NCBI GenBank assembly: GCA_000004695.1
Contig: CM000152.2
Location: 896,001 to 960,000 of the forward strand
Reading direction: 5' to 3'
DNA: 64,000 nucleotides
DNA from: Dictyostelium discoideum
Taxonomy: Eukaryota
Shown: in pieces, positions 5,632-58,731 of the stretch
Layout: each line of letters opens with the position of its first letter
How positions within the stretch are numbered: position 1 is the stretch's first letter
Translations under genes and position numbers: made by a program
Notes under the pieces: generated by a model
The model's input: the letters and a program-made list of their open reading frames with translations, nothing else
Told to the model about the DNA's origin: nothing
Databases searched by the model: none

Positions 5632-8104
5632 ATCTTTAAAATATATTTATTAATTTATACGTGTATAATTAAATAAATTAGAGGAGTACAAAGCAAAATT
5701 AGAAGCAGCATTAAAAGATAATCAAGATCTTATTTTATCAATTAAAAATCTTGAAAATCAAAACACTGACTTGCAAAATAAATATGAAGATATCGTTCTA
5801 AAATCATCAAAAACTTCCTCTACAACCAAGCCAACAACAACCACTAATACTGTAAAACCAACAGCAGCAAATGGAAAATTGGCATCATCAACATCATCAA
5901 CATCCTCACCTTCTAAACCAACAACAACTACAATCAAACCAACAACAACAACCACTACAACTGTAAAACCAACTACAGTTAAACCAGTTGCTGCTACTAA
6001 ACCAACTACTACTACCACTACTACTACTACAACCACTAAACCAACCACAACTGTAAAACCAACTACAGCTTCATCCAAACCATCAGCACCAAAACCAACA
6101 ACAACTACAACTACTAAACCAACAACAGCACCAGTTTCAAAACCAACTGCTACAGTTGCAAAGAAACCAGCAGCTGCCACTACCACTGCAGCTACCTCCA
6201 AACCAGCACCATTAACAACATCTTCATCATCATCTAATTTAAAAAAGACTGACTCAAAAACTAAACTTACCTCCACCACCACCTCTACTACATCATCACC
6301 ATCACCAAAACCAACAACATCAGCAGTAAAGAAGCCAGCTTCATTAACTACCACCACCACCACCACCACTGCTACCACTAAAACATCAACCCCAACTAAA
6401 CCAATAACAACCACTCCAACCAAACCAACAACCACTCCAGTCTCTAAAGTATCAACACCATCCAAAACCACCTCAACACCAACAAAGACTTCAACCCCAA
6501 CTAAAACTTCAACCACTACACCAACTAAACTCAGCAATACACCATCTTCATCATCATTAAAGAAAGTTGATGATAAGAAGAAATCATCAACTGATTTATC
6601 AGCAGCAGCAAAGGTAATTAAAACTGAAACTCCAACTCCTTCTGTTGAAATTCAACCAAAAGAAGAAGAAACAATTAAAGAAGAAATTAAAGTTGAACCA
6701 ATTGTTGAAGAAAAGGTTGAACAAGAAAAACAAGTTGAAGAACAAGTTAAAGTTCAAGAAGATGTTAAAGTTGAGGAAGAAGAAGATGTTAAAGTTGAAG
6801 ATGTTAAAGTTGAAGAAGTAAAAGTTGAAGAAGATGTTAAAGTTGAAGAAGAAGATGTTAAAGTTGAAGAAGAAGATGTTAAAGTTGAAGAAGTAAAAGT
6901 TGAAGAAGATGTAAAAGTTGAAGAAGAGGTTAAAGTTGAAGAAGATGTAAAAATTGAAGAGGAAGAAAAGGTTGTCCAAGAAGAAGACAAAGAAGACAAA
7001 GAAGAAGAAGATAAAGAAGAAATGGTACAAGAGGAAGAAAAAGAATTCATCCAAGAAACCACAGAACCAATTCAAAATATTGAAATCGACCGTTCAATGG
7101 ATGATTTTAAATTTGATCAAGATGATATTAAATTTGATGAAATTGAGTCAGATCTTGAATCAAACTCTTCAAGAGAAAGAGAAAGAGAAAATGAAAATAA
7201 ATCAATTGATGAACCACTTAAAGAAGAAGTATATGAAACTGAATCAGTTGGTAGTAATAATGAAAAAGAAGAACAAGAACAAGAACAAGAACAAGAACAA
7301 GAACAAGAACAAGAACAAGAACAAGAACAAGAAGAACAACACGAAGAACAACACGAAAAAGAAGTAAAACAAGAAGTTGATGAAGAGAAATTCATTGATG
7401 AAGTTATTGTTGAGGAAGAAAAACAAGAACAAGAAGAGAAAGAAGAAGTTGTTGTTGTTGTTGTTGAAGAAAAACAAGAAGTTGTTGTTGAAGAAGAAAA
7501 ACAAGAAGTTATTGCTGAAGAAGAAGAAGAAGAAGAAGAAGAAAAGGAAGAAGAATCTATTGTTATTGAGGAATCAAAACAAGAAGAAGAAGAAAAGGAA
7601 GAAGAATCTATTGTTGTTGATGAATCAAAACAAGAAGTTGTTGTTGTTGTTGGAGAAAAAGAAGAAGAAGAAACTATTGTTGTTGAAGAACAACCAATAC
7701 AAGAAGTTGAAACTGAACTTGTTGAGGAGGAAGAAAAACTTGAAGAACAAGTTGTTGAAGAAGAAAAAGAAAGACAAGAAATTATCGATGATCTTTTAGG
7801 TAATGATGATGATAATAAAAATGAAGAAGTAGAAGATGAAGAAGAAGAAGAAAAAGAAGATGAAAAAGTAGAACAAAAAGTAGAAGATCCACAACAACAA
7901 CAACAACAACAAGAATCATCCAAATTTGATTTAGAATTTGATTTTGATTCAATTTCAACTTTTAAACCAAATGAAAACAACAACGCTCAAACTGAATCAT
8001 CTCAAAAATCAAACTTTTCCGATCTTCTTGATTTAGATTTCACCAACACATCAACCACATCTGCTACAATTTCTGTTGAACAAGAGGTTGAAGAAATGTT
8101 TTAA
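5380..8104 (+). CDS. Low-complexity mucin-like / acidic repeat protein, 2 exons (5380..5428, 5682..8104)
   Basis: Exon 1 is MIENRDGANVDLQKEL ending at donor GTAAGT (5429). The acceptor TTAG at 5680-81 joins in frame to EEYKAKLEAALKDNQDLILSIKNLENQNTDLQNKYED, a coiled-coil-like stretch. This is followed by KPTTTT/TKPT Thr-Pro repeats, then EEDVKVEE and (EQ)n acidic repeats. Confidence 0.6.
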
Positions 8105-14603: not shown

Positions 14604-17450
<2,847 letters not shown>

Positions 17451-17722: not shown

Positions 17723-18075
17723 ATGAAAAAACCATATAATAAAAAAGTAAATGTAAACAAATGTATGGCAAATGATTTGATTATTACTTTTCCAATGAGA
17801 GATGAACAAATTATAGCCAAACTAGATTCAATCAAAAGATGGAAAAATGTAAATAAAAATCTTTATTCAATTGATGATTTTTGTTCATTATTGAATGAAT
17901 TTGAAATGATTCAATTTTCAATAGGAGGAAGCCCTTTGTTTAATAAAAACAATGGTAAACAATATAATTATTTAAAAGAATACAATTTGACTTCAACTTA
18001 TTTTAAAATGATTCAAAGAGAAAGAGATTTTTCAGTTTTAACAAGTTTTAAATCTGATATTATTAATAATGTAGG

Positions 18076-18107
<32 letters not shown>

Positions 18108-19845
18108 AATAATGAATAATATTTATTTATTTATATTTATTAATTTTTTTTTAAAAAAGGGAATTCAAAAAAAATCAAATGGATTACGTACTCAAATTTT
18201 AGGTAAATTAAATGATGATGGATCACCAATTTTTAAAAAAGATACAATACTTAATCATGTAGCTGAGGAATTAATAATAGATATGAAAGAAAATAAAGCA
18301 ATTGAGATTAAACATGAATTTTTTAGAGATATAGATTTTAATAGATTAAATCGTAAAACAAATAAAATTGGTGAAAATTGGATCACTGTGGATAAATTTC
18401 CATTTGGTTCACTTGTTATTCCAAAATTTAAAGAAATTTGTCACTCTGTTTTAAAAGAATTATTTTTAATTAATAGAGATGATACACTAATAAAAATAAA
18501 TTCATTAGCAGAAGATATTTTAATTGGATTTATTGATAGTTGTTTCAATGATAAAACTCCAGTTGGAAAGGAAATTTTATTTGAACTTTTTAAAAACCAT
18601 ATACTTAATAATAATAAAACTGATGAAATTGAATCATTATTCCCAATTGAAAGAATAATAAATAGTTGTATTATTAGAGATGATTGGTTTAGATTTAATT
18701 ATGGTAAATCAATAGCACAAGATTTATTTTTACCACATTTTCAAGATAGTTTTTCAATAAATGTTTATGAAAATTATCAATTATTCACACACAAAAATAT
18801 TTCTAAATTATCAGATAATGTATTGTTAAAGCATACAAATAGGAAAAAGTCAGAATCAATAGTGATTGGAGAATCATCAATTGTTAATAAGGAAAAGTTT
18901 ATTGAAAATTTTCATTTGGTTACAAATAATATGTTTAATGATTTTTCAAAAATTCCAAAAACATGTTATTTTATTGGTGGTATACTTACAGCATGTTTAA
19001 CAGATTCAATTAATGAAGATGAATATAGAGATAGCGATATTGATGTTTGTTTTACTGGTTATGAGTCAAATGATATTGTAGAGTTCGTTGAAACATATTT
19101 TGGATCTTTGGATGAATTACAAACTGATAAAACAACTACGATTCATGGTGATCATTTAACAATTTCAAAGTATTATCCAAATAGACATGTTCAAATTAAT
19201 CTTCACTTTTATCCTACACTTGAGAGCATTTTAGTAGGTGTTGATATCGATGCATCTTGTTTTGCATTCAATGGAAAGGATTTATACTGTTTGGAAAGAG
19301 CTATGCATTCAATAAATTATAGTATTAACATTGCTTGTGAATTTAACTTTAATGTTAGAGGTAATGGCCATTATCAAAAACGGTTGGTTAAATATTTAGA
19401 TCGTGGTTTTCATATCTACTATTTACCAACACCACAAATTAATTATTTTTTTAGTGATATTATACTTAAGGTGAGTGAAAATGATGGGTTCTCTCCAACA
19501 CTTAATCAGAATGGAATTGCTTTATTAGCATCAGCAAGCCTATCAAAACAAATTCTAAAAGAGTTAAAGAAACCATCATTTTCAATTCCTTATGGTCCAT
19601 CATATGATAAAATAAGTACAGATTTGTTCATTAGATCAACCTATAAATCTATGTATAATGGGTATTCAACACCAATGTGTCATAGAATTATAGATACTGT
19701 TGGTGAAGGCGAAGATTCAATTAATACCATTTTATTTGAAACCAGATCTATCGAGAGTCTATCTTTTAATAGATATTCATGGGAACAACATATCACCAAT
19801 GAAGCTTTAAGATCAAATTTATTTAATTATAACCAATTTTTTTAA
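17723..19845 (+). CDS. Hypothetical protein with nucleotidyltransferase-fold-like motif, 2 exons (17723..18070, 18160..19845)
   Basis: ORFs 17723..18103 and 18112..19845 are joined by an 89-nt intron, with donor GTAGGT at 18071 and acceptor AAAAAG at 18158-59 in phase 0. Internal motif FIGGILTACLTDSINEDEYRDSDIDVCF, followed about 60 aa later by LVGVDIDASCF. Confidence 0.55.
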
Positions 19846-23656: not shown

Positions 23657-26533
23657 TCAGTTTGCATTTGCAAATTCTCTTGAAACGAGAATAGCTTCAT
23701 CGATTTTATCTAATTTAGAACCAACACCTTGAGCAACATCAACTTTACCACCACCTTTACCACCTAAAACTTCGGTAACCTTTACAACCCAAGCATTTGC
23801 AGTTAAAGTTTTTGAGATTTCAGAATCTTTTGGAACGATACCAATGCAAGTAACTTTACCTTTTTCTTCATCTGGACTAATTAACATGATTGCAGTCATT
23901 GGTGATTTAGTTTGAATTTTTTTAATGGTTTCAGTGATTAAAGGAGTATTTGAATTGAAGTTTACTAAATCTACGAAAACCTTTGGTTGAGATTTAGCCA
24001 ATTCTTCAGAGGTTTTCTCTAAATAGGTTTGAGCTTGTTGAGCCAAGATGGTTTCTTGTTCTTTGACTTGTTTTCTTTGGAGTGCTTGAACTTCCTTCAA
24101 AGTTTCAACCAAATTCATACGAACACTTGCTGAAATGGTGACAACCTTGAGAAGATCTAATAAGGAAACGATTTCCTTGGCAAGTTCTGAACCTGATAAT
24201 TTGAGGGCATTATTGAATCTGACTTCCAATTCTTTATTGAGTTCTATAGCAGAGGCAGCTTCAGAACCAGTGACAGCGACGATACGACGTACACCAGCAC
24301 CCAAAGTTTCTTCAGAGGTAATGGTGAAGAGTTCAGCTTGTTTAGTGTTTGACAAATGTGTACCACCACAAAATTCGATGGAATAGTTTGCCCATTCTGG
24401 ATTGGTTGGATTTTCAATCAATTGTTCAACTGGTACACCAACAGAGACAACTCTAACTGGATCTGGATAAACTTCACCGAAAACTGCACGAAGACCATTG
24501 ATCTTTTTAGCGGAAGCCAAACCGACCTCTTTGGCGTGAACATCGAGTTGTTTAAAGATTTGATCATTAACGATTTGGTCAATTTTAATGAGTTCATCCT
24601 TGGTGATTGCTCTACCAAATGAAAAATCGAATCTGAAACGTTGAGCGTCGACAAAGGAACCACGTTGATCGATACCATCACCTAAAATATTCTTGAGTGC
24701 GTAATTGACCATATGAGTTGATGTATGATTTGACATAATTGGTGAACGACGAGTATAGTCGACGGTGAGTTCAACACGATCACCAACTTTCAAAGAATCG
24801 CATTCATAGGAGAGGTAACCAATATGAAGTACATAACCACCAAATACTTTACAATCCTTGACGTCGAAAGCAGTCTTTTGATCATCGATGAAACTCAATT
24901 GACCAATATCATAGATTTGACCACCTTGTTCAGCGTAAAAGTTTGAATTCTCTAAAACTACACCAATTAAGGTACCCTTTGGAGCAGTGTCAACAAATTC
25001 CTTACCATTCCAAATGGCTTTGATAACTGATTGAATTTCATGTTGTTTATATTTGAATGAATCATCGGTTGGTTTGATATCGTTATTCTTTAACCATGCA
25101 TTTGCTTCAGCACCGAGTGTTAATTCGACCTTCTTTTCCTTTTGACGTTTACGATCGATTTCAGATTGAGCTTCACAGAGTCCTTCATAACCTTTGATAT
25201 CGACTTTGTAATTCTTTTCTTCGGCCATAATGGTGGTTAAATCGATTGGGAAACCATAACAAGTTGAAAGGAAATAAGCATTCTCGGCAGAGAGGGTATT
25301 ATTTACACTCTTTTTGATCATTTTTTCAAATTCAACAATACCTTTCTCCAAAGTTTTATTGAACATATCCTCCTCACGAGTGAGTACCATTTTGATGTGT
25401 TCTGGTTTCTTTCTGAGTTCTGGGAAGAATTCACCAAAGTTTGCAATGACAACATCAACCAATTTAGAGAAGAAACCAGCTGGTGCATTTAATTTTTGTT
25501 TACCATAACGGACGGCACGACGAAGGATTCTACGGAGGACTTGACCTCTACCATCGACGGATGGGGCGGCACCATCAGCAATTGAGAATGTGAGTGTACG
25601 AATGTGATCGGCAATGACACGATAGGCCATATCAACTTGTTGTGTATCTTCAGCACCGACTTTTCCACCGTATGGTTCTGGATAACCAGTTACCTCTTGA
25701 ATGGCGGCAAAGATTGGCATAAAAACATCGGTATCATAATTGGTTGGTACTTTTTGAATGATTGAAGTTAAACGTTCGAGACCCATACCAGTGTCGACGT
25801 GTTTTTGTGGTAATGGACGTAAGGATTTATCAGCCTCACGATTATATTGAATGAAAACCAAATTCCAAATTTCAATCAAAGTTGGGTCATCAGCATTGAC
25901 AAAGGAGGCACCATCACGACCTTCCACTTTGTCATAGTGGATCTCTGAACATGGACCACATGGACCTTGGTCACCCATCTCCCAAAAGTTCTCTTTCATA
26001 CCGAATGGGAGCACACGTTCCTCTGGTAAATATTGCAACCAAAGGTTCTTTGCTTCGAGATCTGCTTCCAATCCTTTCTCTGGGTCACCTCTAAAGTAAG
26101 TGACATATAAACGTTCTTTATCTAATTTGTATACCTCTGTCAATAATTCCCATGCCCAAGTGATTGCCTCCTTCTTAAAGTAATTGCCAAATGACCAATT
26201 ACCCAACATCTCAAAGAAGGTGTGATGATAAGTATCCTTACCTACATCATCCAAATCATTATGTTTACCACCTGCACGAATACATTTTTGACTATTGACT
26301 GCTCTCTTCAATTTTGCTTGTTCTGATTTTGGATTAACTTGTCCTAAAAAGATTGGTTTAAATTGATTCATACCTGCATTTGCAAATAATAAAGTTGGAT
26401 CATCATGTGGAATTACTGCTGATGATGGAACAAATGTATGTTCACATTTCTCTCTAAAAAAATCGATAAAAGTTTTTCTAATTTGATTAACATCCATTTT
26501 TTTTCTTCTTTTATATTTTCTCTCTCCTTCCAA
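23657..26533 (-). CDS. alaS: Alanyl-tRNA synthetase (class II aaRS), cytoplasmic
   Basis: 958-codon ORF with LLFANAGMNQFKPIFLG (AlaRS motif), HYDKVEGRDGASFVNADDPTLIEIWNLVFIQYNRE, editing-domain HTSTHM, and a C-terminal domain. The true start may be the second Met (MDVNQIRKTF). Confidence 0.9.
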   Translation of the reverse strand: MEGERKYKRRKKMDVNQIRKTFIDFFREKCEHTFVPSSAVIPHDDPTLLFANAGMNQFKPIFLGQVNPKSEQAKLKRAVNSQKCIRAGGKHNDLDDVGKDTYHHTFFEMLGNWSFGNYFKKEAITWAWELLTEVYKLDKERLYVTYFRGDPEKGLEADLEAKNLWLQYLPEERVLPFGMKENFWEMGDQGPCGPCSEIHYDKVEGRDGASFVNADDPTLIEIWNLVFIQYNREADKSLRPLPQKHVDTGMGLERLTSIIQKVPTNYDTDVFMPIFAAIQEVTGYPEPYGGKVGAEDTQQVDMAYRVIADHIRTLTFSIADGAAPSVDGRGQVLRRILRRAVRYGKQKLNAPAGFFSKLVDVVIANFGEFFPELRKKPEHIKMVLTREEDMFNKTLEKGIVEFEKMIKKSVNNTLSAENAYFLSTCYGFPIDLTTIMAEEKNYKVDIKGYEGLCEAQSEIDRKRQKEKKVELTLGAEANAWLKNNDIKPTDDSFKYKQHEIQSVIKAIWNGKEFVDTAPKGTLIGVVLENSNFYAEQGGQIYDIGQLSFIDDQKTAFDVKDCKVFGGYVLHIGYLSYECDSLKVGDRVELTVDYTRRSPIMSNHTSTHMVNYALKNILGDGIDQRGSFVDAQRFRFDFSFGRAITKDELIKIDQIVNDQIFKQLDVHAKEVGLASAKKINGLRAVFGEVYPDPVRVVSVGVPVEQLIENPTNPEWANYSIEFCGGTHLSNTKQAELFTITSEETLGAGVRRIVAVTGSEAASAIELNKELEVRFNNALKLSGSELAKEIVSLLDLLKVVTISASVRMNLVETLKEVQALQRKQVKEQETILAQQAQTYLEKTSEELAKSQPKVFVDLVNFNSNTPLITETIKKIQTKSPMTAIMLISPDEEKGKVTCIGIVPKDSEISKTLTANAWVVKVTEVLGGKGGGKVDVAQGVGSKLDKIDEAILVSREFANAN

Positions 26534-53527: not shown

Positions 53528-54006
53528 TATTATTTTTTAAAAAAAAAATCTAAAAAAAAAGATTTTAATAATTGGATGTATATTTTGTGTACAACCACAC
53601 AATTAATTTTTTTTTTTTATTGTATTTTAAAAGGTCAAAAATAAGGGTATATATATTATGTTATTTATAACAATCAAATTAAATTAATAAATAAATAAAT
53701 TAATTTAAACACTAACCTATTATGTATAAATGCAAATTACTCACTTGATAAATCGTAATAATCTATTTTTTAAAAACTACATTTCCAAAAAATAAATTAA
53801 ATTAAATTAAATTATAATAAAAATAAAAATAATAATAATAATAAAAATAAAAATAAATAAAACAATATAAAAAAACAATTATTTTTCATTGTTTAAAAAC
53901 ATTTTACTTTCAAATTTCTTTTTTTTTTTTAATTTTTATTTCTTTTAGTATTCCCAAATTCCCAAATTTTTACACAAAATAAAAAAAAAAAAAAAAATGA
54001 AAAATG

Positions 54007-54042
<36 letters not shown>

Positions 54043-54149
54043 TAAAATATAAAAACTCGATTATTGTGTATTTTAATAAAAATAGTTTATCAAAAAAAGA
54101 AATAGAAATTTTTAAACAAATAAATATAAATAAATAAATTAAAAAGAAA

Positions 54150-55676
54150 ATGACAGATTCAGTAGTTAGAGGATTTGAAGATGAATTATCATTTATTGAA
54201 AAGATAGATTCAGTTAGATATAGAGTTAAAAAAGGATTTGTACCAAATATGAATGTTGATGGTATGATCTATGTTAATGATTCAATTAAAGATTATTTAT
54301 ATGAAGAATTGGAACAATATTCAAAACGTGGTGTTAGTGGATTTTTACCAGCAGTTAAACAGATTGCAAATGTTGCAAGTTTACCAGGTATTGTGGGACA
54401 TTCATTGGGTATGCCTGATATTCATAGTGGCTATGGGTTTAGTATTGGTAATGTTGCAGCATTTGATACAGAGGACCCGCTATCGATCGTTTCACCTGGG
54501 GGTGTTGGTTTCGATATTAATTGTGGTGTAAGATTATTAAGAACCAATTTAACAGAGAAAGATATTGAACCAATTAAAGAACAACTTTGCCAATCACTTT
54601 TCGACCATGTACCAGTTGGTGTGGGCTCCAAGGGTGTCATACCAATGAATATAAAGACCCTAAATCAAGCATTGGAAATGGGTGTCGACTGGTCATTGGG
54701 TGAGGGTTATGCATGGGTTGAGGATAAAGAGCATTGTGAAGAGTATGGCAGAATGTTGAATGCCGACCCAACCAAAGTGTCCGAGAGGGCAAAGAAGAGG
54801 GGTTTGCCACAATTGGGTACTTTGGGAGCTGGTAATCATTATTTAGAGGTGCAGGTGGTCGATGAAATCTATGATAAAGCAGCTGCAAATAAAATGGGTA
54901 TCGATAGACAAGGTCAAATTTGTATTATGATTCATAGTGGTAGTAGAGGTTTGGGTCATCAAGTTGCAACCGATTCCTTGACTCTAATGGAGAAAGCAAT
55001 GGCAAGAGATCACATTCATTTAAATGATAAACAATTGGCATGCTCAAGAATTAACAGTACCGAAGGTCAAGACTACCTCTCTGGTATGGCTGCCGCCGCA
55101 AATTTCGCTTGGGTAAATAGACAAAGTATGACTTTTCTAACAAGACAAGCATTTGCCAAAGCATTCAATTCAACCCCTGACGATTTAGATATGCATGTAA
55201 TCTATGATGTGTCTCATAATATAGCAAAATTCGAAGAACACAATGTAAATGGTAGACCAAAGAAATTATTAGTACATAGAAAAGGTGCAACTCGTGCATT
55301 TGCACCTCATCATCCATTGATACCCGTCGATTATCAATTCACTGGTCAACCAGTATTAATTGGTGGTACAATGGGTACTTGTAGTTATGTTTTAACTGGT
55401 ACTGAATTAGGTATGAATGAAACTTTTGGTTCAACTTGTCATGGTGCAGGTAGATCTTGTTCAAGAAATAAATCTAGAAATAATTTATCATACACTGATG
55501 TCTTGGATAGTTTACAAGCAAAAGGTATTAGTATTCGTGTTGCATCTCCAAAATTAGTTATGGAAGAAGCTCCTGAATCTTATAAAGATGTTGTACAAGT
55601 TATTGAAACTTGTCATAAAGCTGGAATTTCAAAAAAATCTGTAAAATTAAGACCAATTGCTGTTATTAAAGGTTAA
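54150..55676 (+). CDS. rtcB: RNA-splicing ligase RtcB (HSPC117) homolog
   Basis: Single 508-codon [29 protein letters not shown] and [42 protein letters not shown] align near-identically in motif order to human RTCB. Also [13 protein letters not shown] and [14 protein letters not shown]. Confidence 0.9.
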
Positions 55677-55822
55677 AAAAAATAAAATTTTTATTTGTTT
55701 TTAATAAAAAAAAAAAAAAAAAAAGAAAAGAAAGAAATATATCTATAATAAAATCGGATTTTATTTTGTTTGTTTAATTTGTTTTTGTTTTTTTTTTTTG
55801 ATGGTTTTTGTACAAAGGTTTT

Positions 55823-55855
<33 letters not shown>

Positions 55856-55935
55856 GATTATAATATATATAGATATAAATAGATAAATAATATTTGTTTT
55901 TTTTTTTTTTTTTTTTATTATTATTTTCTTTTTTT

Positions 55936-58731
55936 TTAATTACTTGCAAGTTGAACATCTTCATCTAAAGAATTTAAAATTTTAATTAATTTTCCAAAAG
56001 AATCTTTTTCTTGTTGAGTTTTTGGTTCAGATTCAGTTGACTCCATTTCTTCAGCCATATCTTGACGTTGTTTAATTAAATGACGATATAGACAAGCCAA
56101 TTCTTTTTCCAGTATGATTGGTGATTGTAAAGCACCAGGTGGACAATCAGCAGGAACTGTTGAAAGAGTATTAATGAATGATTTCATATTTTCCATATTA
56201 TCAATTACGAAACGATTCATATCTTTCATAAAGTCTTCTTTGTATTCACCAAATTCTACTTGATTTGCCAAATTTTGTAAGGTTTTTGCAATAAGAATGA
56301 GAGAACGAGTAGTTTTAATGCCTGGATGATCTGGCATTAGATCGAAAAGTTTTGGAGCTAAAATTGCAGGACAAAAGAAACGAAGGAAAATGAAACCACT
56401 TACGGCTGTATAACGTGTGATTTCATCCTTTGGATAACGTTGAACCACTTTATCTTGAATGGATTTGAATACCTCTCTCAATGGGCCAGGACAATTATTT
56501 ACACTAGAGAGGATAGCAGTAGTCATCTTTTTAACCCAACTTAAAAGATTCTTACAATTCTTTTTAATATCCTCACCCTTCTCCAATTTGGTTGGATCAA
56601 TTTCACAAGACTTTTTTGATGAGTAAATCTTTTTAATCAATGGTCCAATGGTTTGAGAGAGATATGGTATACCAATTAATTTCATGAAAAGGTCTACACT
56701 CTTGGTTGCAAGTGAATTACCACGGAAAATAATGTCTGGATTATTGGTTGAATCAATTTCATGATCGGTTAAAGATTTTAAAAGGTATAGACATTTTCCA
56801 GTTTTTTCAAATACTCTAATTAAATTGTTTGATACTGATTCACGATGTTTTGTAACCTTTCCTAACAATGTAATGGTATAAAGGTTCTCTTGTTGTAAGA
56901 GTTCCAATAATGGTTGATAACTTTGTAATGGTAAAACTACTTCTTCACTATATTTTAATTTTAATCTAATATCACCAAATTTATTATCTAATGTTTGTTT
57001 TGGATAAAGACATAACCATTGATCATTTGGTTTCTCTATATCAATATGAGATGCTAATACAATACCTTGACCAATGAAATATTGTTCATAACCATCTTTT
57101 AATGGATTCATAATATTTGTACCATTATTATGATGATGATGAAGATTATTTGATGAATCTATTACATTTATACTACCATTACTAATTAAAGAACTTGTAC
57201 TATTAATAGATGAACTTAAATTGATTGTTTCAGGTGGTGCTGGTCCACCTGATGTACCAGTTGATTTTGGTGTTGTTTGTGGTGTATTAGTTGATGCATT
57301 TGATGATGATCTTGTCTTTGAATCTGGTGTTTTAATATTATTTGATTGTGATGATGGTGAAATTGGTGTTGATGGTGTTGATGATGGTGTTGTTGTAGCG
57401 GTAGTATCATTAGATTTTTGATGTGATGATGGTGGTGGGGTTGATGGTATGAAACCACTACCACTGGCACTTGAATTTGTGCCTCTTGGTGATTTTAAAC
57501 CACTAATATCACCATCATCTGAAAAAGTTTTTGGTTCATATCTCCAAAGTGTAAAAGTAATACATTCAATTGAATCTTTTAATTCTCTAGTGATACCATT
57601 AGTTAAGGCATCTTGCCAAGCAATACCTTCTTCGTCAATAACTATATCACCTTTTTTTGAACGTACAGACCAATTAATGAATGGAGTTGTATTTGTATAA
57701 ACGTTTGAAATATTTTCAGTGCTAGTTGAGCCACCCATTGAAGCAGCAGACATTGAAGGCAATGGAGTTGCCAATGAGTGTGATAAATTTCTACCAAATA
57801 AAACTTTCCATTGAATATGACCAGGTTGTGATGGATCTGTTAATGATATTGGTTTAAAGTTAAATAATATTTGAATTTGTGGTACTTTTTTCGAACTCTG
57901 TGGTTGAGTTAAAGGAAACCAAAGCTCCCTCTCTTTTTGATCCTTTAGTGTATTGATTGGTATCACCAATTTACCTATATGCTCATCGTTTGAATACTTC
58001 TTTTCATCCATAACTGATAATACCAATTTTGCTGATGCTGGATCACTGATTTCCAATTGAAACTCCTCACACCAAAATGGATTCAATTTCTTTGGAATTG
58101 TACGTGTACGTTGTTTTTGTTTCTCCAATTGAACTGTACAATAGGGATCGGTTGTATCTGAAAATGTCATTAAATTTGGTGATGATATCTCTGTAAGTAA
58201 ATTTTGTGCACGTTTAAATGATTTACCATTCTTTACCATCTCTCTCTTTCTTAATCTTGCCTCTATTAAATTTCTTGCTTCAAATACTTTAACTGTTAAA
58301 TTACAATCTTTAGTTTTTTGTTGTCTAATTAATGATTCATATGTTGCTGATGGTGTCATTAATGATTTTCTAGACATTGTTGATGTCTCTATATTATTAT
58401 TATTATTATTTATTTCATTTATTGTGTTTGTAGTTGTAGTATTTCCATCTTTTATATTTAATAATGGTATTGATGTTTTAGATTGTATTTGTTGTTGTTC
58501 TATTATAATATCATTTTTAATTTCAAATTCTAAAATTTTTTTTTTAATATTGATTTTTTTTTTTTTTTTTTTTTTTTGATATTTGTGTGTTAAAATTTGT
58601 TTATGTGTTTAAAATTTTATTTTATTTTATTTTTTTTTTTTTTTTGTGTGTTTAAAATTTTTTTTTTTTTTTTTTTATTATATACACTTACCATTAATAG
58701 TATTTTCGTTTACTGTTAATGATTCCATCAT
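55936..58731 (-). CDS. C2-domain Ras GTPase-activating protein, 2 exons (58731..58692, 58529..55936)
   Basis: Exon 1 MMESLTVNENTIN with donor GTAAGT, and acceptor AAAATTTTAG at 58530-31, join in phase 1. C2 domain LTVKVFEARNL..DPYCTVQLEKQKQRTRTIPKKLNPFWCEEFQLEI. The RasGAP signature is FLRFFCPAILAPKLFDLM, with a Ser/Thr/Pro-rich linker. Confidence 0.75.

Follow-up and report, generated by a model that had tools for sequence, protein, structure and literature searches.

We describe here the product of DDB_G0278463, a two-exon gene on the forward strand of a 64,000-nucleotide stretch of the Dictyostelium discoideum genome (contig CM000152.2, positions 896,001 to 960,000; this whole stretch is referred to as the window, and coordinates are given within it). 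The 677-residue protein belongs to the Gad2 family (PF26128), which takes its name from a phage anti-defense protein, and the fold of its modeled core is that of the head domain in class II tRNA CCA- and A-adding enzymes and in bacterial poly(A) polymerase (PAP). We place very high confidence in family and fold taken jointly. On balance, we regard the protein as probably an active Gad2-family nucleotidyltransferase (NTase) of the pol-beta superfamily, acting in the manner proposed in the Discussion.

Membership of the Gad2 family

A precomputed match to PF26128.2 is recorded for all seven close dictyostelid homologues (P0001-P0007). For P0001, which represents the 90%-identity cluster containing the query sequence P0281, this match is named 'PF26128:Gad2' at E<=1e-5. 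Searches of the protein against Pfam, NCBIfam and PDB sequences returned no match, with the Pfam set being one that did not include the PF26128 model. In a control scan of the same set phage Gad2 also went unmatched, while E. coli Cca matched PolyA_pol, and the negative Pfam result is therefore no evidence that the protein is family-less. The original prediction for this locus had presented it as an orphan with no nameable family, a view that gives way to a catalogued Pfam family of some 2000 representatives: a profile of nine dictyostelid homologues, run against 1.84 billion proteins, retrieved 1991 of them (50% identity, E<=1e-3).

Gad2 (Gabija anti-defense protein 2) is a 400-residue protein of Bacillus phage SPbetaL7 with an AlphaFold-predicted nucleotidyltransferase domain (bioRxiv 10.1101/2023.05.01.538930). 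The founding sequence is WIT28108.1 in OQ921347.1, and PF26128 is carried by 119 of 120 listed homologues. Comparison by hhalign of the 145-sequence eukaryotic core with 121 phage Gad2 sequences gave a probability of 96.3% (E 1.9e-9) over 146 columns, pairing GG with GG, SDID with NDVD, Q461 with Q, (V/F)DID with FDFT and RLxKYxxRGF with RVQKYxxKGY. The eukaryotic hidden Markov model (HMM) scored phage Gad2 homologues at up to 29 bits and class II enzymes at no more than 1.4 bits. By their precomputed matches, Gad2 and the DDB_G0278463 protein share a Pfam family, with GG, DxD, Q461, D478 and R..KY..(R/K)G(F/Y) in register, and in both the NTase role is a predicted one only.

The two proteins also differ in several respects. 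The alignment is confined to Gad2 residues 18-167, its N-terminal NTase domain, and the C-terminal half of Gad2 is unrelated, whereas the core of the DDB_G0278463 protein lies at residues 345-545; the flanks differ and the full-length Gad2 architecture is absent here. Gad2 has FDFT where the eukaryotic proteins have (F/V)DID, and its GG-DxD spacer is 12 residues long compared with 18 in our protein. Countering Gabija cannot be the role of an amoebal protein.

Further searches with the core were less productive. No match was obtained by tblastn against 50,697 phage genomes, and PHROGs yielded weak matches only (phrog_1614 'nucleotidyltransferase', best E 1.5e-6, five of 16 members). A word-index homologue search with a 16-sequence core alignment found just two proteins. 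Matches of the core profile to a VapC-like toxin and to TatD among PDB sequences were weak and judged spurious.

Fold, motifs and residue conservation

In the structure models the core of about 200 residues (approximately 345-545) shows the minimal alpha/beta fold of NTases and, more specifically, the class II head-domain fold. The best structural matches were as follows (entry, enzyme, structural score):

3wfo, A-adding enzyme, 12.6
3aql, E. coli PAP, 11.1
3h37, CCA-adding enzyme, 10.4
4wby, A-adding enzyme, 10.2
9kma, CCA-adding enzyme, 9.6
1miv, CCA-adding enzyme, 8.5
2la3, CCA head domain, 8.4
6jyj, TENT5B, 8.4

No score above 5.8 was obtained for antibiotic NTases, MenT toxins, pol X, Cid1/GLD2/TUTs, CD-NTases, a cGAS-like receptor or OAS2. 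The TENT5/FAM46 non-canonical poly(A) polymerases (6jyj) are among the closest known systems. A Cid1-type PAP is rejected on this ranking together with missing family features, as the protein lacks the combination of PF01909 NTP_transf_2 and PAP_assoc that marks Cid1, GLD2 and TUT enzymes. The Mab-21/OAS-type fold and sequence family of the OAS/cGAS/CD-NTase group are likewise absent from it.

The following elements of the core and its C-terminal extension are referred to below (window coordinates, strand, description):

18844..19446, + strand: Gad2-family NTase core, residues 345-545, whose modeled fold is a class II CCA/PAP-like head
18970..18981, + strand: FIGG, residues 387-390, the hG[GS] turn leading from beta1 into a helix; strand/helix junction in both models
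19033..19050, + strand: SDIDVC, residues 408-413, the [DE]h[DE]h pair (D409/D411) that opens beta2; from conservation and profile alignments
19174..19194, + strand: YPNRHVQ, residues 455-461, family signature P456/R458/Q461; from conservation, with the Q also aligned in Gad2
19237..19269, + strand: GVDIDASCFAF, residues 476-486, containing D478 and D480, counterpart of class II motif B (RRDFTINA)
19372..19410, + strand: YQKRLVKYLDRGF, residues 521-533, helix-strand signature, counterpart of class II motif D 'EDPLRxLRAxRF..LGF'
19447..19611, + strand: C-terminal helical extension ending at P593-Y594-G595; helices 541-585 in the model

The sequence D409-I-D411-V opens the strand formed by residues 410-415 in the model, and we take D409 and D411 to be the putative metal-binding pair by analogy with class II enzymes. 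When the family profile was compared with five aligned class II sequences (Cca and PcnB of E. coli, with Bst, A. aeolicus and Planococcus fragments), every motif fell in register despite weak scores: GG...DxD corresponds to motif A, 'ESILVGVDID' aligns with 'LEEDLKRRDFT' (motif B) and YQKRLVKYLDRGF aligns with EDPLRVLRVARF..LGF (motif D). The class II template is not itself conserved, in that the Arg and Asp of GGxVRD and the EDxxR motif are replaced in the DDB_G0278463 protein, which has GGILTA, GVD and YQKR. The protein also has none of the tRNA-binding neck, body and tail of class II enzymes, and the flanks of its core are unrelated to them.

The core common to the profile matches extends over approximately residues 345-575. 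We counted residues in 157 domain copies from the best 150 of the 1991 matches. In the motif A region, G389 is present in 151/151 copies, G390 in 140/152, and D409 and D411 in 150/155 each. The family signature is kept to a similar degree (P456 151/157, R458 149/158, Q461 150/157), as is the motif-B-like element, with D478 in 155/157 and position 480 occupied by D in 137/157 and by E in nine. In the motif-D-like element, with about 155 copies at each position, Y521 occurs in 143, R524 in 154, K527 in 152, Y528 in 152, R531 in 151 and G532 in 155. Overall, conservation exceeds 85% at G389, G390, S408, D409, D411, P456, R458, Q461, L474, D478, D480, G488, R496, R516, Y521, R524, L525, K527, Y528, R531, G532 and F533, and the DDB_G0278463 protein retains every one of these. 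Differences between the Dictyostelium clade and the family consensus are limited to two positions, Q522 (E in most of the family; E in 113 copies, Q in 26) and N487 (usually D). Q522 is invariant in the nine aligned dictyostelid sequences, which comprise the query, its orthologues and paralogues. P593-Y594-G595 is also invariant in this nine-sequence alignment, and the 57-sequence family consensus has 'PxGPxW'. The spacer between GG and DxD is a variable loop, with positions 398-404 both gapped and variable across the family.

These data bear directly on the original prediction, which had recognized a pol-beta-superfamily NTase signature in the two-exon protein on the strength of FIGGILTACLTDSINEDEYRDSDIDVCF (residues 387-414) and, further on, LVGVDIDASCF (residues 474-484), with spacings given as about 18 and about 60. 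Both motifs lie where they were placed, with 18 residues intervening between GG and D409 and 67 between D411 and D478. In a composition-preserving shuffle control the loose hG[GS]-x8-25-[DE]h[DE]h pattern arose in 3.8% of cases and the three-part pattern in 2.0%, and the motif pattern alone is thus weak evidence; it amounts to more than chance because it is conserved across the family, where GG, SDID and D478 are near-invariant in the ~157 copies, and the superfamily assignment is upheld. The proposal that LVGVDIDASCF forms the third-carboxylate strand does not fit the models, in both of which the D478 element lies after a helix that follows the fifth strand, or the alignment with class II motif B. 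D478 is nevertheless very probably in the active site. The prediction had named a structure model as its test and leaned towards an OAS/CD-NTase-like type: such models show the NTase fold it anticipated, with class II CCA/PAP enzymes as its type in place of OAS/cGAS, enzymes of which score 5.8 or less.

Distribution and domain fusions

Family members are present in the dictyostelids Dictyostelium, Cavenderia, Acytostelium, Tieghemostelium and Synstelium, in other Amoebozoa (Physarum, Ceratiomyxa, Arcella and Flabellula), in Diplonema, and in fungi (a chytrid and a lichen ascomycete). At least two further stand-alone paralogues, DDB_G0291025 and DDB_G0269826, are encoded by D. discoideum AX4. 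Fusions were counted in a sample of 57 family members, where the domain is joined to ankyrin (Ank) repeats in 12, to PARP with PARP_reg in six, to WGR in four, to BRCT in three, to PNK3P with AAA_33 (polynucleotide kinase/3'-phosphatase, PNKP) in two, to BTB in two, to a protein kinase in two and to PBZ in one; single proteins add ubiquitin, Alba/Rpp20, HMG-box and WD40 domains.

P0100 and P0279, from other D. discoideum assemblies, are 1761-1788 residues long and read BRCT-WGR-PARP_reg-PARP-NTase-Ank, with the NTase domain at approximately residues 834-1017. P0060, from the Diplonema ambulator transcriptome, and P0133 combine the NTase domain with a PARP1-like module and a C-terminal PNKP (PNK3P + AAA_33), a three-enzyme architecture that suggests the processing of nucleic-acid ends. 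PARPs with an Ank+WGR+PRD+PARP architecture are named clade 1A by Citarelli et al. (PMC2964712). An NTase domain in ankyrin PARPs is mentioned neither there nor in a 2026 survey of fungal PARPs, and Gad2 has no occurrence in the main text of the EVADES anti-defense preprint.

A Foldseek comparison with viral models located the domain in dozens of giant-virus proteins labeled 'ankyrin repeat' or 'BTB domain', the highest TMq being 0.81. The viruses matched were Fadolivirus, Bodo saltans virus, Megavirus, Klosneuviruses, Pandoraviruses and Pithoviruses, and examples include A0A7D3QUG1 (Fadolivirus), A0A2H4UVY7 (Bodo saltans virus) and S4W4V8 (Pandoravirus). This distribution suggests exchange of the NTase domain between amoebae and giant viruses. 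Clade 1A PARPs and the giant-virus Ank/BTB proteins carry a domain homologous to the core described here, and DDB_G0278463 encodes its stand-alone version, in which the PARP, PNKP, Ank and BTB modules are absent.

Gene model, selection and genomic surroundings

The open reading frame (ORF) starts with the ATG at 17723 and comprises 2034 nucleotides including the stop codon, divided as follows:

17723..18070, + strand: exon 1, residues 1-116; from the ORF and splice sites, with no Pfam match and low model confidence
18071..18159, + strand: intron of 89 nucleotides, phase 0, adenine-thymine (AT)-rich; GT (18071)...AG (18159) read in the sequence
18160..19845, + strand: exon 2, residues 117-677 and stop; from the ORF and identity to the DDB_G0278463 product

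The exon junction is unbroken in the alignment with orthologues. At every residue the translation is the same as DDB_G0278463/XP_642379.1/Q54Y23_DICDI of D. discoideum AX4, for which the database label is only "hypothetical protein" or uncharacterized, and the literature searched held nothing relevant on DDB_G0278463, PF26128 or 'Gad2-like'. A syntenic orthologue in another D. discoideum assembly is flanked, as in the window, by a low-complexity gene and an alanyl-tRNA synthetase. Its exons are 96.4% identical to those of the window and its intron 93%. The ratio of nonsynonymous to synonymous substitution rates (dN/dS) relative to this 96%-identical orthologue is 0.30 for the whole gene and 0.18 for residues 341-600, containing the core, which is below that of the flanks. 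The gene is under purifying selection.

The N-terminal ~340 residues are mainly helical and matched no Pfam domain, and the full-length matches checked by name are all dictyostelid; presumably this region supplies targeting in the stand-alone protein. The region past residue 600 has low model confidence and is poorly conserved.

The whole window is strongly AT-rich, with coding tracts of poly-N and poly-Q. The upstream neighbor (14604-17450, + strand) encodes a 948-residue low-complexity protein with a poly-N tract of ~80 residues, (PQ)n and poly-T tracts, and a C-terminal stretch (NWTVRWFKLKNDSLSYYKKRKDTKPKGIIKL...) that resembles a PH domain by eye. Downstream, the large ORF at 23657-26533 (- strand) is an alanyl-tRNA synthetase, which explains the local peak in guanine-cytosine (GC) content of 0.39 at 24-26 kb; the syntenic alanyl-tRNA synthetase gene in L001 contains tRNA-synt_2c, tRNA_SAD and DHHA1 domains. 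Further GC-rich islands at 6001-8000 and 54001-58000 (0.30-0.33 compared with a background of ~0.18) are presumably other well-conserved coding genes.

Discussion

The high conservation of the putative active-site motifs in DDB_G0278463, combined with the modeled class II-like fold, enables us to propose a mechanism for the protein, which we consider rather likely to be catalytically active. If class II enzymes are taken as the guide, the triphosphate would be placed by G389-G390 together with the helix that comes next, and D409 and D411 would hold the catalytic Mg2+ ions. The motif-B-like residues D478 and D480 would grip the ribose and base of the incoming nucleoside triphosphate (NTP), as would the basic, motif-D-like element Y521-Q522-x-R524...K527-Y528..R531-G532-F533. 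The nucleoside monophosphate (NMP) would then be moved, without a template, onto a hydroxyl acceptor. We infer NMP transfer because the pocket is class II-like and the residue set is intact; the catalysis, metal ligands, donor and acceptor of this scheme are all inferred.

The nature of the acceptor is a more tentative matter. It is possible, although we would not put it higher, that the acceptor is either an ADP-ribose terminus or the 3'-OH end of a nucleic acid, in a context related to damage or conflict. A 3' end or ADP-ribose end appears the most plausible choice because the domain is fused elsewhere to DNA-break-sensing PARP modules, to the poly(ADP-ribose) (PAR)-binding PBZ and to the end-healing PNKP. 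An acceptor of this kind would also fit the target of Gad2, since Gabija is listed in a review table as sensing DNA ends (PMC12904381).

Several observations weigh against this interpretation. PARP, PNKP and ankyrin modules are all absent from the protein itself, so its functional context is borrowed from paralogues. Its Q522 and N487 could change specificity or activity. The third carboxylate of class II enzymes, a role that we take to belong to E79 of the Bst enzyme (position read from the Bst sequence), is without a conserved counterpart, and the family has no conserved acid on the strands that come after the DxD strand (441-446, 449-454 and 461-464). The relationship to class II enzymes is weak at the level of profiles, with hhalign P values of 0.044 for the eukaryotic core and 0.0028 for Gad2, and PF01743 PolyA_pol gave no match at E<=10 when the E. 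coli Cca control matched at 3.7e-19. A phage-only Gad2 HMM scored the query at only 6 bits, with other eukaryotic members reaching 17-23 bits, which makes the link from this gene to phage Gad2 real but transitive. Finally, a February 2026 review describes the mechanism of Gad2 as "not elucidated" (PMC12904381).

Among the alternatives, the transfer of a nucleotide to a protein or small molecule, as performed by aminoglycoside and lincosamide NTases, GlnE and AMPylators, is improbable. The structural scores for enzymes of this kind lie far below those of RNA-end transferases, and the fusions to PNKP, PBZ, WGR, BRCT, Alba and HMG-box domains point to nucleic-acid ends or PAR as the target.

A second possibility, that the protein is a true class II paralogue, a divergent tRNA nucleotidyltransferase or poly(A) polymerase acting on tRNA or RNA 3' ends, draws on the top structural matches, which are CCA- and A-adding enzymes and PAP, on the motifs being in register, and on the annotation of some giant-virus structural neighbors as tRNA nucleotidyltransferase/PAP. 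We consider it a poor candidate nonetheless. Neither PF01743 nor PolyA_pol_RNAbd is matched by the protein, though the E. coli Cca control matches both; the Arg/Asp of motif A 'GGxVRD' and the 'EDxxR' of motif D are lost (GGILTA, YQKR), the E79-type third carboxylate and the class II body and tail are missing, and the eukaryotic HMM barely registers class II sequences.

The clade-specific changes E522 to Q and D487 to N, the lack of a canonical third carboxylate and the existence of a distant paralogue, P0008, without D480 (DIH) and with E at position 409, could instead indicate a dead pseudoenzyme or scaffold, whose NTase fold is kept only to bind nucleotide, nucleic acid or protein. This too seems doubtful, as G389, G390, D409, D411, D478, D480, R458, Q461, R524, K527 and R531 are all kept and the core evolves under a lower dN/dS than its flanks, while the invariance of Q522 among the dictyostelid sequences looks like a change in specificity and not decay.

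A signaling synthase of the OAS/cGAS/CD-NTase type, making a cyclic or 2'-5'-linked oligonucleotide messenger, could account for the generic hG[GS]...DxD signature, the long GG-to-DxD spacer and the occurrence of the family in conflict contexts (a phage anti-defense protein and giant viruses), but is very improbable given the fold ranking and the missing family features, and a cyclic-nucleotide signal is an unlikely product.

Returning to our reading of the protein as a Gad2-family NTase, a broader and considerably more speculative view, which we think unlikely to hold in full, is that Gad2-type NTases constitute one ancient family of broken-end-modifying enzymes across phages, giant viruses and eukaryotic clade-1A PARPs. 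In this case, members would extend broken DNA or RNA 3' ends or PAR termini with nucleotides, or would cap them. Phage Gad2 would hide DNA ends from Gabija by end modification, and amoebae would use stand-alone and PARP/PNKP-fused copies in DNA-damage or antiviral signaling. If this is true, the eukaryotic fusions would be the first clue to how an unsolved phage counter-defense works, and would reveal an unrecognized catalytic activity inside a PARP subfamily.

DDB_G0278463 is a new member of a catalogued Pfam family and not a new kind of system. The eukaryotic and giant-virus branch of the family, with its repeated fusions to PARP1-type, PNKP, PBZ and ankyrin/BTB modules, is undescribed in the PARP-evolution, Gad2/Gabija and EVADES papers searched, and the presence of a Gad2-type NTase within eukaryotic PARPs and giant-virus proteins is a more interesting lead than the gene alone. 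The fusions to PARP1-like modules, PNKP, ankyrin and BTB suggest, by association, an end-modifying role tied to DNA damage. Dictyostelium is a tractable model for DNA repair with several paralogues, one of them PARP-fused, and work in this organism could assign a chemistry to the whole family.

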